A stretch of 64,000 nt of DNA from Escherichia coli (GTDB taxonomy: Bacteria; Pseudomonadota; Gammaproteobacteria; Enterobacterales; Enterobacteriaceae), in NCBI RefSeq assembly GCF_017348835.2, contig NZ_CP071375.1, one strand, 5' to 3'. A program made the position numbers. Below, piece by piece: positions 12,001 to 15,000 of the stretch. Each line of letters begins with the position of its first letter. Position 1 is the first letter of the stretch.

Positions 12001-15000
12001 TCAGGAACGGATTACCGGTACCCGTCATCGCCACACCATCAGGAACGGGAGCATCCGTATACAGATAAATCCCCAGCCCGAACTGATTGTTGGTCAGTGC
12101 GCCTGACAGGCGGAACTTACAGGTCAGTCTGCCGCCCTGTGTCAGCAGGGTAATTGCGTCATCCACCGGATGCGTCAGGGACCAGGTTTTATTGCTCTGC
12201 TTGGTGATCTTAAATACACCATCTGACAACTGAATTCCGCCATCCTTAATGCTCCAGCCCTGCGCAGCAGCCTCTCCGGCTGCCGGCAGCAGGGAGATTG
12301 TGCGAACGGACGTATCTGCAGACGGACCCGATGGCGTGTTGCCGCCGGGCGAGGGTTTGATTTCCGGTGCCTTACCACTGATGAAGGCTGAGGTGCGCCC
12401 GGCTGCGTTCAGAATAGCGGTTGCCAGACGATCCGGAATAATGCTCCTGCGCGCCCATGAACTGAAATGTGTCGGGCGGTTTGATGATACCTGGTTTCCA
12501 TTCGTTCTCGATGCCGCACCGTAATATCCTGATGCCGGAATATCCGGATCTTCTGCCGGCGCGTTAGTGGCGGTATTGACGCCGTTACCGTCTGTCATGA
12601 AGGGCACAAAATAAACGCCCTCACTCTCCCTGTTTTTATACCCGCCGTACACGGTGTCGTATTGGGTAGCGTATGTATTTTTCCAGTAATACGTCGTGTC
12701 ACCACAAATCCACGGCACATCTGCAGCGCTGCCACCATGGCACTGCGCGTTAAACACGGAGAGGTCAGCACGAAACTGTGTCAGCATGGCTGTAAACAGC
12801 GCAGGTTGCTGTGCGTGGGTGGCGGCGCTCATGTCAAACTCACCCTGCATCCAGCAGACGGCCAGCAGAACGTTTTTGGGATTTTTCTGCAATGCCGCTT
12901 TTGTGCGGGAAATCAGATCCTGATATAACGGCTTGCCCACCCCCCAGCGTGCCGAATCCTGACTGGCCCCCGTGGACTCGCTGAATGTCCCCTCCGCGCC
13001 CTGGGTAAATGCCGAACCACCACGACAGCATGGTACCAGCAGGATCCCCGCGTTATTCGGGATATACGGGAGCAGTTTTTTGGCAATATGTAAACCCTGG
13101 CCGACACAGCCGTACTGCCCTTTGCTCAGGTCAGCCCTCGGATGATTCAGCGTACTCATATCCTGCACATCATGCAGACAGTGGTCAGCCGGAATAATAT
13201 CGTTATATCTGCAGGCAGCCCCGCCCGGCGTCACTGTACTGCGGCGCGCCAGCTGTTTAATGCGCGGATCCGGAGCATCGTATGAATCCGGCAGCGGAAG
13301 CCCTTCACCGTAAGCCATGGCATTGGACTGCCCGGCCAGTACGATGACGTAGTACCAATCCGGCTCAGATGAAGGGCCGACCTGTGGCTCTCCTTCAATA
13401 GCCACCGCCTGCATCAGTGTGTACGGCGTAATGGCAACCGGTCCGCCATATGGCTGCCAGCCCTCTTTCAGTTTGTGTGTCAGCTTTTCCGCAAGGTCTG
13501 ACGGCGACGCCGCCCTGACAACATCATAATGTTTAATCGACATCGAATTTCTCCCGTGTAGAGGAACAGAGTTAAAAAGCCGGAAGCGGAATCAAATCAC
13601 AGGATGACCATCTGCCAGTGGCTGGTCGTAAAAAAAAGGCCGCGCCATGCGCAGCCGAAAATAAAGGGATAACGATGATAGTTTGAGAAAAACAGAAATA
13701 ACACTTTTGTGGCAAAGCATGGTGCCGGGTGCCTCCCGGTGAATTCAGTATCAGCACCTGAATCCGCGATTACCCCATATTCCTTCTTGCTGATTGCCCC
13801 ACCGCACAGGGGGATTCACCATGCAGAAGTGTTTTTAATAAACAGCAAACAAAAAAATCAAGCATTATGCAGGCTGTTTCTTTTTATCACCGGCCACAGC
13901 AATACCATAATGCCGCAGACCAGCACCCCATCCGCCAGCACCGACATGATTCTGCTGGTGAAATCCACCATCACCACCAGAAACAGCAGGAGTGCAGCCA
14001 CAGTCAGGCGCAGTTTTACCGTCACAGGTAATTCTCCAGACGAAGACCCAGAACACCGGCAATCTCTTCCAGCACCTTGCGCTCTTCCGGCTCAATTTCG
14101 CCGTCTGCCTCCGCAATGGCCACCGCCACATCCAGCACATCTTCCGCTTCACGCGTATCGTGTTTCACATCCTCGATCTCACGTAACGCCGCACGACGAC
14201 CAGTTTTAAAGTTCGTATCCAGCTGACCGATAATGGTTGCGCTAATCGCATTAATTTCTGACGTAAACGCGTACAGCGCAGGCTGATTACGCAGTACCTG
14301 TTCGATCTTCGCTTTCTAGGAAGCCTCACATTCACCATCTGCACAGGCCACCAGGTATGCGGCGTTAATCACCACCTGTGCCAGATCGCGTTTTTCAAAC
14401 TTTTTAATTTCCGTTGCCGCTCTGCGGGCTTTTTTTACCAAAAATACCAAACATCGTGACGTTCCTTTGGGTGGGTGAGCCAACGCCCGGGAGCGATCTG
14501 CCCACAGAGAAAGTCACACTGACCACTCCATAAGCTCCCCCCGAAAGGCTCTGTGGTTGGTATGCGCCGGGCGTGGTGCGGATACAAAAAAGGTCCGCAA
14601 AAGCGAGCGAGGGAAAATAAGTGTGGTGCGTTGTACTGGGTTCGAACCAGTGACCGATTGCTTAGAAGGCAATTGCTCTGTCCGGCTGAGCTAAAAACGC
14701 AGAATACCGATAATGGACCGCCATCGGAGACTCGAACCCCGCGAAACCAGCTTCGAAGGCTGGCGTTCTATCCCGATGAGCTAATGGCGGTATGTGATGG
14801 TGGCCCTTGCTGGATTTGAACCAGCGGCCTGGCGATTATGAGTCGCTCGCTCTCACCACTGAGCTAAAGGGCCGGGCGCAGGATAATAACGTTACGAAAT
14901 CAATGTTGCAAGCATTCAAGAATCACCTGGTTAAAAATTACCCTTGCTTCCTCCACCAGCGCATTCACCATGTCTATCCGAGATAAGTGGCACAAAAAAA

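Follow-up and report, generated by a model that had tools for sequence, protein, structure and literature searches.

The ileZ-argN-argO tRNA module in a defective, stx-less lambdoid prophage of Escherichia coli

The Stx2 phage 933W (NC_000924, 21120-21371) carries three tRNA genes, ileZ, argN and argO, behind its late-gene antiterminator Q and the elements pR' and tR', and the trio is named and mapped both in the GenBank annotation of that phage and in PMC2858043. Other lambdoid phages also have tRNA genes in the slot that separates Q from the lysis genes (Thr-UGU in phage 21; Asn/Thr in SfI, Sf6 and ST64T), of identities other than Ile2 and Arg, and for these too codon supply is debated against other roles (PMC3636060, PMC12445682). 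A paper on satellite integration (PMC10111431) has nothing on ileZ-argN-argO. Here we describe a trio of this kind in a 64,000-nt stretch of E. coli DNA (NZ_CP071375.1; hereafter the window), where an earlier note had placed three prophage tRNAs at 14624-14873, downstream of Q.

Gene calls and the 933W parallel

ARAGORN returns exactly these outer coordinates, and 210 nt separate the end of Q from the first tRNA, ileZ. The features of the locus, in the direction of transcription, are:

15084..15773, minus strand: Q, late-gene antiterminator (RefSeq annotation on DNA that is identical or almost so; open reading frame)
15072..15100, minus strand: predicted pR'-like late promoter, TTGCAA-17-TATATT, lying across the end of Q (consensus scan)
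14994..15020, minus strand: tR'-like intrinsic terminator, hairpin plus U7 (sequence reading, fold, scan)
14883..14911, minus strand: pT-like tRNA promoter, TTGCAA-17-TATTAT, then the GC-rich discriminator CCTGCGCCC (scan)
14798..14873, minus strand: ileZ, tRNA-Ile2 type, anticodon CAU, 76 nt, encoded CCA (ARAGORN, Rfam; tRNA-Ile in PGAP)
14714..14790, minus strand: argN, tRNA-Arg, anticodon UCG, 77 nt, encoded CCA, D-stem mismatch C11.A24, discriminator U73
14624..14700, minus strand: argO, tRNA-Arg, anticodon UCU, 77 nt, encoded CCA, acceptor mismatch U6.C67, discriminator A73
14585..14611, minus strand: terminator remnant after argO (alignment with 933W; two substitutions break the stem)
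13858..14450, minus strand: cargo slot downstream of the tRNAs, with a TerB-family pseudogene (14022-14450) and a DUF3927 gene (13858-14025) (RefSeq)

The identities given in the note (an Ile2-like CAU, an Arg-UCU and a second Arg) stand, but not the order of its title, which put UCU in the middle: on the minus strand, which had gone unstated, transcription runs through CAU (14873..14798), UCG (14790..14714) and UCU (14700..14624). Each gene matches Rfam RF00005 above the gathering score of 29 bits (ileZ 72.5, E=3.9e-15; argO 63.3, E=1.3e-12; argN 44.4, E=2.2e-07), and on the identical sequence in O157:H7 strain PV15-279 and in strain PE164 RefSeq/PGAP annotates tRNA-Ile, tRNA-Arg and tRNA-Arg with no pseudogene flag. 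None of the three is classed as a pseudo-tRNA by any program, argN being the weakest of them. The UCG anticodon that the note had read in the middle gene is also that of ARAGORN (TCG, the others being CAT and TCT), and its description as non-native agrees with the K-12 Arg genes inspected, which have ACG, CCG and UCU. The fourth K-12 Arg anticodon is CCU.

The likeness to the cluster of Stx-converting phages, drawn in the note, is borne out by 933W, where order, anticodons and place after Q are the same and the identities are 99% for ileZ, 92% for argN and 95% for argO. Phage records with a match to the cluster number 247, at 90-95% identity. The trio is thereby confirmed as the well-known ileZ-argN-argO module of lambdoid phages, a reading that is correct but ordinary, the RefSeq annotation of this sequence already having all three genes.

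Prophage, transcription signals and cargo

The prophage of the window is a defective lambdoid one beside serU, with frameshifted capsid, portal and integrase genes. Over 16 kb the window is 100% identical, apart from a few 1-nt indels, to the pig isolate E. coli PE164, whereas PV15-279 is not collinear with it in spite of a 100% identical match to the 501-nt query spanning the tRNA cluster. In common with 933W, SASA esterase, holin and lysozyme genes follow further downstream; the Q allele, however, is another one (690 bp in the window, 474 bp in 933W).

The signals around the trio have their counterparts in that phage. A pR' is annotated in 933W at the position of the pR'-like promoter, and terminators are annotated at the place equivalent to tR', whose hairpin in the window is unusually stable (-16.4 kcal/mol, z=-3.6, none of 200 shuffles equally stable). 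The 'pT putative tRNA promoter' of 933W aligns with the pT-like promoter of the window, which has the same hexamers and ends 9 nt before ileZ, and a tRNA promoter at the corresponding place is also named in PMC2858043. Across 122 related clusters, conservation climbs over positions -38 to -1 and the pT hexamers are the best-kept upstream positions, the -10 TATTAT being present in 107 of the 122 and the -35 reading TTGNNN. The terminator after argO fared differently: in 933W it has an 8-bp stem plus U6 (-14.8 kcal/mol), whereas on folding the window copy does not form this hairpin and gives an alternative one of -7.5 kcal/mol instead.

Comparison with 933W and Stx2a_WGPS6, where stxAB occupies the slot downstream of the tRNAs, identifies the cargo slot of the window. 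Neither stxA nor stxB lies directly downstream of the tRNAs here, and the annotation has no stx in any part of the prophage, which is not a Stx-converting phage. As a caveat to the supply of tRNAs to virulence genes, which the note had mentioned for the cluster of Stx-converting phages, the downstream neighbours here include neither stx nor any other gene for virulence, just the TerB pseudogene and DUF3927. The presence of the trio in a defective, stx-less prophage also means that it is no indicator of a toxin phage.

Decoding identities and codon usage

The dominant determinants of E. coli TilS are C4:G69 and C5:G68 (PMC12514573), both of which are present in ileZ, while metT has U4:A69 and A5:U68. 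The identity of ileZ is 88% to K-12 ileX and 69% to metT. With ileX it has in common CAU, an identical anticodon loop, both determinants and A73; it differs from it in A27.C43 in place of G27.U43, in the compensated replacement of C6:G67 by U6:A67, and in being phage-borne within an operon. A27.C43, the sole non-standard stem pair in ileZ, is invariant across related clusters and shortens the anticodon stem. The gene thus has the sequence features of a lysidine-dependent tRNA-Ile2 and is predicted to be a substrate of TilS and a reader of AUA, because of the two determinants and the closeness to ileX.

Arginyl-tRNA synthetase of E. coli recognizes A20 in the D-loop, C35, and U36 or G36. Both argN and argO have A20 and C35, their D-loops ending in GGAUA and GGACA, respectively, as in argQ, argX and argU, and with this fit to the identity elements both are predicted substrates. 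As for the discriminator, argO has A73 and argN has U73, as do nearly all argN variants, whereas native E. coli Arg tRNAs, including the K-12 ones inspected, have A73 or G73. The anticodon and anticodon loop of argO are those of K-12 argU, the reader of rare AGA/AGG, but the two genes are only 70% identical and differ entirely in their stems, so argO is no recent copy of argU. At 63.3 bits argO scores below its counterparts in other phages (68-70), and it differs from the 933W copy by G6>U, which gives the U6.C67 mismatch, by U60>C and by G73>A.

The note had cited a supply of rare-codon tRNAs for late genes by the cluster of Stx-converting phages, and in this prophage codon usage bears that rationale out only in part. 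With coding sequences placed on the window by BLAST and a host control of only seven neighbouring genes (2396 codons), AGA+AGG come to 12.6 per 1000 in late, 13.8 in early and 5.8 in host genes, a 2.2- to 2.4-fold enrichment (odds ratios 2.2 for late and 2.4 for early; p=0.013 and 0.003). AUA is enriched in early prophage genes only (16.5 against 7.9 per 1000 in the host; p=0.004), the late genes having 5.2 per 1000, and CGA/CGG, the codons of argN, are enriched in neither early nor late prophage genes. The usual rare-codon explanation, then, holds here for AGA/AGG and partly for AUA, and for nothing more.

Roles considered for the trio

Beyond the gene calls, we infer that the locus is probably a lambdoid tRNA operon in a stx-less prophage that gives extra decoding for codons whose tRNAs are scarce. 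Spacers of 7 nt and 13 nt and a shared strand, that of the late genes, show the three genes to be arranged as a single small operon. Judging from the sequence and the annotation of 933W, transcription could come by two routes: from pT, a sigma-70-type promoter of its own with a GC-rich, stable-RNA-like discriminator, which would be independent of Q because it sits downstream of tR'; and from pR', by read-through when Q overrides tR' on induction. Cleavage of the precursor would release three tRNAs already bearing CCA. Host TilS would convert ileZ into a lysidine-34 tRNA, to be charged by IleRS and to read AUA; argO would read AGA/AGG, and argN, if still active, would read CGA/CGG with an anticodon missing from the host. 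The net effect would be more decoding capacity for codons with scarce host tRNAs. With capsid, portal and integrase genes frameshifted, a benefit to late-gene expression of the phage is not currently selectable here. The stem mismatches of argN and argO, their lower scores than those of relatives and the broken terminator after argO count against the mechanism.

The weakest point is argN, which may well, though we lean to the contrary, be a non-functional relic, poorly folded or charged, leaving ileZ and argO as the only members that matter. Its 44.4 bits are below all K-12 class-I tRNAs tested (62-73) and below the best argN copies (54.8-58, the 933W copy having 54.8); its C11.A24 mismatch, due to G24>A relative to 933W, is unique to the window variant among 31 distinct aligned argN sequences; and U73 and the lack of CGA/CGG enrichment point in the same direction. 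So does the record of the family, in which ileZ is almost invariant and argO mostly intact, while argN is repeatedly pseudogenised or switched in anticodon: its slot is an unrecognisable pseudogene in 31 of about 120-123 related clusters, and at least one stem mismatch mars 30 of the 81 argN copies still recognisable (8 of 96 for argO). Clusters seemingly with ileZ and argO only are no argN deletions, their 80-101-nt spacers being argN pseudogenes. Against a relic, all but one of the 21 stem pairs are sound in the window copy, and so are its anticodon loop, its T-loop (UUCGAGU), G18-G19 and A20. Further points are the common tolerance of a single C.A mismatch, the missing pseudogene flag in PGAP, and the 325 genome records, from a variety of hosts, that keep the 501-nt sequence at an identity of at least 99%. 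In addition, the cloverleaf is kept across the 31 variants (97.4% paired, four pairs with compensatory double changes, none of 500 shuffles as good). We regard the window argN as what appears to be a mildly damaged copy of an often-decaying gene. It would be the dispensable member of the trio, given that no demand for its codons was detected, that it decays frequently elsewhere and that the copy here is slightly impaired. Decay and anticodon switching would also account for its inconsistent labelling by pipelines, as Arg, as Lys or not at all.

Colicin D cuts Arg tRNAs. PMC10264068 lists it with other anticodon nucleases in discussing the evasion hypothesis, by which phage tRNAs replace host tRNAs destroyed by immune nucleases or bacteriocins, codon correction not being their role. 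For tRNA-Thr(UGU) of the lambdoid phage 21 this has been demonstrated by experiment, the tRNA rescuing cells from P2-OLD, and a phage tRNA-Lys(UUU) likewise rescues from PARIS AriB (PMC12445682); for Ile2 and Arg no comparable case is known. Lys(UUU)-Thr(UGU)-Gly(UCC) occupy the slot after ileZ in 12 related viral loci, and the A27.C43 of ileZ is a shortening of the anticodon stem of a kind linked to OLD resistance in tRNA-Thr. Such a role is nonetheless improbable for this trio, in which we see neither the anticodon of a host tRNA targeted by a known defence nuclease nor resistance-giving changes in the anticodon arm: ileZ and argO have the anticodon loops of host ileX and argU, and so no evident protection from loop-cutting enzymes; argN itself bears the paired CNG motif and A37 that P2-OLD cuts, and the substrate rule of P2-OLD, applied to all three, lends no support to resistance; no phage-defence nuclease targeting tRNA-Ile2 or tRNA-Arg(UCU) was found reported (PMC12445682, PMC10264068); and the simpler codon model fits the AGA/AGG enrichment. 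Fainter still is the chance that the post-Q slot is an exchangeable cassette shaped by tRNA-nuclease conflict, with the argN backbone being retargeted. That backbone does carry UCG, UCU or UUU (the latter with an unusual C33), its anticodon switches go together with compensatory changes in the anticodon stem, by which the paired CNG motif is lost as well, and Thr(UGU) and Gly(UCC) can take the place of its neighbours; if true, frequent argN decay would reflect shifting nuclease pressure and not plain neglect. A more plausible alternative, albeit one we doubt, is that the cluster is retained because it serves the bacterium and not the phage, constitutive pT activity in the lysogen aiding translation of acquired genes rich in AGA/AGG/AUA. 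The position of pT downstream of tR', where it should fire without Q, would suit this, as would the intactness of ileZ amid broken capsid, portal and integrase genes, the enrichment of AUA and AGA/AGG in early and accessory prophage genes too, and the spread of the cluster, which 3057 of the 5426 complete E. coli genomes carry, at up to 13 places per genome and roughly 7600 places altogether. The activity of pT is only predicted, however, and its GC-rich discriminator suggests growth-rate control and no specific host programme; the mismatches in argN and argO run counter to strong selection at the level of the host, and the wide distribution may just mirror how common lambdoid prophages are. 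Codon supply by a phage operon remains the reading we prefer.

Several minor signals in the region were dismissed. A plus-strand Rfam match to 'Plastid-ycf2' (33.9 bits against a gathering score of 65.7) is the antisense of ileZ, and weak, sub-threshold leader and isrK/isrJ matches at 14991-15092 are probably a mere reflection of the tR' hairpin. Single-sequence minimum-free-energy folding, uninformative for unmodified tRNAs, yields no cloverleaf for ileZ, for both argN copies or for the argO of 933W; the argO of the window alone comes out cloverleaf-like.

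The tRNA trio and its control sequences

ARAGORN recognises exactly three tRNA genes between 14000 and 15500, all on the minus strand and with an encoded CCA end, which the Rfam tRNA model also detects (E-values 2e-07 to 4e-15, gathering score 29 bits). They are listed here with the promoters and the terminator upstream, which are predictions at the sequence level:

15100..15072, minus strand: predicted pR'-like (late) promoter
15020..14994, minus strand: strong hairpin followed by U7 (-16.4 kcal/mol, z=-3.6)
14911..14883, minus strand: predicted second, pT-like promoter, TTGCAA-17-TATTAT, aligning with the annotated pT (tRNA promoter) of phage 933W
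14798-14873, minus strand: ileZ, anticodon CAT, ARAGORN; Rfam tRNA 72.5 bits
14714-14790, minus strand: argN, anticodon TCG, ARAGORN; Rfam tRNA 44.4 bits
14624-14700, minus strand: argO, anticodon TCT, ARAGORN; Rfam tRNA 63.3 bits

The earlier note had the genes, their anticodons and the 14624-14873 span right but gave no strand; the real order of transcription is CAU, UCG, UCU on the minus strand. A distance of 210 nt separates the stop codon of Q, the late antiterminator, from the first gene, ileZ, and the spacers within the trio are 7 and 13 nt. The parallel that the earlier note drew with ileZ-argN-argO also holds, as ARAGORN finds the same CAT-TCG-TCT series in the Stx2 phage 933W, and the window's genes share 99%, 92% and 95% identity with these, in an alignment running through the whole cluster, promoter included. 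The 933W record lists Q, pR', qut, two terminators, a 'pT putative tRNA promoter', ileZ, argN (noted 'CGG?') and argO (noted 'AGG?'), followed by a terminator, stxA2B2, a SASA esterase, S and R; the same layout has been described in O157 genomes (PMC2858043). Given this match and layout, the trio is a feature already known, and it is already annotated by RefSeq (tRNA-Ile, tRNA-Arg, tRNA-Arg, with no pseudogene flag), which makes it of low interest in itself; the observation is confirmed and its interpretation supported. What this work contributes is the setting, a strain resembling PE164 in which a defective prophage without stx adjoins serU, and evidence that, of the three genes, argN, singled out in the earlier note, is the fragile one.

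Unlike 933W, the window has a TerB-family pseudogene and a DUF3927 gene after the tRNAs, and no stx. Two substitutions in the window (14585-14611, minus strand) disrupt the terminator that 933W has after argO (8-bp stem, U6, -14.8 kcal/mol), and transcription from pT may in consequence continue into the TerB pseudogene. Between the second promoter and ileZ lies the GC-rich CCTGCGCCC; conservation climbs sharply across the final 38 nt upstream of ileZ, and the pT -10 hexamer is found in 107 of 122 clusters. An STnc100 sRNA match with internal deletions (13681-13853, minus strand; 100.8 bits, gathering 47) is placed between the DUF3927 gene and the SASA esterase, whereas the STnc100 of 933W is full-length (207.7 bits) and located between stxB and the esterase, beside the anti-sRNA AsxR, which Rfam did not detect in the window.

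Unequal preservation of the three genes

On a scale where K-12 class-I tRNAs score 62-73 bits, every copy of ileZ reaches 72.5. The window's ileZ shares 88% identity with K-12 ileX, along with an identical anticodon loop, and 69% with metT; where metT has U4:A69 and A5:U68, it has C4:G69 and C5:G68, the dominant elements by which E. coli TilS identifies its substrate (PMC12514573). It is predicted to receive lysidine and to be charged with isoleucine. Its A27.C43, which is G27.U43 in K-12 ileX, is a family trait and not damage, since it is present in 123 of the 123 copies examined.

Both argN and argO carry A20 and C35, the main identity elements for ArgRS, and argO shares its anticodon loop with K-12 argU, in spite of an overall identity of only 70%. 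UCG is confirmed as an Arg anticodon not native to K-12, as had been claimed, because the K-12 Arg genes inspected have ACG, CCG and UCU, and the fourth anticodon, CCU, is that of argW. The window's copies of both genes appear slightly damaged compared to their relatives: argN has G24>A (giving C11.A24) and 44.4 bits, against 54.8-58 in the best copies, whilst argO has G6>U (giving U6.C67), an A instead of G as discriminator, and 63.3 bits, against 68-70 elsewhere.

A search of viral contigs with the 25-nt 3' end of ileZ gave 120 loci, on all of which ARAGORN was run; this anchor inflates the apparent conservation of ileZ, whose 51 nt outside it are also nearly invariant. Besides a few truncated clusters, the architectures were ileZ-argN(UCG)-argO (68 clusters), ileZ-argO (31), ileZ-Lys(UUU)-Thr-Gly(UCC) (12, of which 11 have UGU and one UUU as the Thr-type anticodon), ileZ and then a backbone of argN type bearing UCU (3), and ileZ-argN-type(UUU)-argO (2). 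The 80-101-nt spacers of the 31 'ileZ-argO' clusters can be aligned to argN and, since they have a scrambled or missing anticodon arm or no T-loop, read as argN pseudogenes no longer recognised by ARAGORN. At least three kinds occur between ileZ and argO (L026, L064, L040, L088 and 27 other loci), with a scrambled anticodon arm, with this arm deleted, or of full length without the T-loop and the G18-G19 dinucleotide.

Of the argN copies that remain recognisable, 30 of 81 contain one or more non-standard stem pairs, compared to 8 of 96 for argO. The argN cloverleaf is still plainly preserved at the family level: in an alignment of 31 distinct sequences, 97.4% of the cells are paired (100% in the anticodon stem), with compensatory double changes in four pairs, values reached by 0 of 500 shuffles, and slid controls fall to 29-54% paired. 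The less variable argO has 98.7% of cells paired and a compensatory change in one pair. Taken together, argN is a true family of tRNAs on which constraint is weak and often fails, and the window's copy is mid-range within it.

In 12 loci (L009, L010, L022 and 9 others; e.g., L009:1788-2094) the cassette after ileZ is a different one, in which an argN-type backbone bearing UUU and an uncommon C33 precedes a Thr-type tRNA and tRNA-Gly(UCC), with gaps of only 1-4 nt; in L007, L020 and L021 the argN-type backbone has anticodon UCU and discriminator A73. The middle tRNA of PPompW (L002:3190-3265), which several records of PPompW and Stx2a phages label 'tRNA-Lys', is probably a pseudogene that was annotated wrongly, because it has C33, a 1-nt D-arm deletion and an Rfam tRNA score below gathering.

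Codon supply and other proposed roles

The earlier note saw in the trio a supply of rare-codon tRNAs, which can be set against codon usage in 12 late, 20 early/accessory and 7 flanking host genes, all of them intact CDSs placed on the window. AGA+AGG amount to 12.6 per 1000 codons in late and 13.8 in early genes, against 5.8 in host genes (OR 2.2, p=0.013, and OR 2.4, p=0.003, respectively). AUA is enriched in the early genes (16.5 against 7.9 per 1000, p=0.004) but not in the 12 late genes (5.2, against 7.9 in the 7 host genes), and no significant enrichment of CGA+CGG is seen (late 17.4, early 14.3, host 13.4 per 1000). By these counts, with a host sample that is small, the explanation is supported for argO, supported for ileZ through early genes only, and unsupported for argN.

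Codon supply could also be to the benefit of the host, by constitutive expression from pT in the lysogen, which is predicted; this is compatible with the data, which do not separate it from a benefit to the phage, and is put forward here tentatively. A role of another kind would be the replacement of host tRNAs lost to defence nucleases. Phage tRNAs can stand in for those so destroyed, as the tRNA-Thr(UGU) of lambdoid phage 21 does in acting against P2-OLD (PMC12445682), evasion of such nucleases has been proposed as a general hypothesis (PMC10264068), and the Lys-Thr-Gly cassettes in the same slot fit it. The window's own tRNAs, however, make this role improbable, as their anticodon loops equal those of host tRNAs, argN bears the paired CNG motif and A37 cut by OLD, and a literature search found no report of a defence nuclease targeting tRNA-Ile2 or tRNA-Arg(UCU). 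The motif, reported as the P2-OLD cleavage site (PMC12445682), is formed in the argN anticodon stem (gene at 14714-14790, minus strand) by C28-A-G30 paired with C40-U-G42, and compensatory substitutions turn it into CAA/UUG in the UUU and UCU variants of the argN backbone; both the match and its change may be coincidental.

The prophage and its surroundings

The 501 nt around the trio are shared at 100% identity with many O157:H7 chromosomes as well as with strains of panda, dog and cow origin; 325 records reach at least 99% identity, and a related copy is present in 3057 of 5426 complete E. coli genomes. A 16-kb query from the window matches the pig isolate PE164 (NZ_CP114128.1) at 100%, and only 10 other genomes cover most of its length. 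The annotation of PE164 gives a lambdoid prophage adjoining serU, with a dicA/dicC/dicB immunity region and no stx, in the following downstream order, all of it on the minus strand:

minus strand: Q, three tRNAs, TerB-family pseudogene, DUF3927 gene, SASA-family esterase
then: IS3-family insertion, holin, lysozyme, lysis protein, terminase, head genes

Its capsid, portal and integrase genes carry frameshifts, and the prophage is therefore defective. It (window 1-29901) also has a hokD toxin gene, and both its TerB-family gene and ydfD are interrupted by internal stops. The IS3-family (IS629/IS1203-like) element is present in three copies (10277-11586, 43761-45078 and 56249-57564), the first of which sits between the holin gene and the SASA esterase. 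At about 31090-48937, a tyrosine integrase gene directly after tRNA-Asn (asnT) is followed by ~17.8 kb that the corresponding O157:H7 PV15-279 region lacks, and this segment is probably a genomic island.
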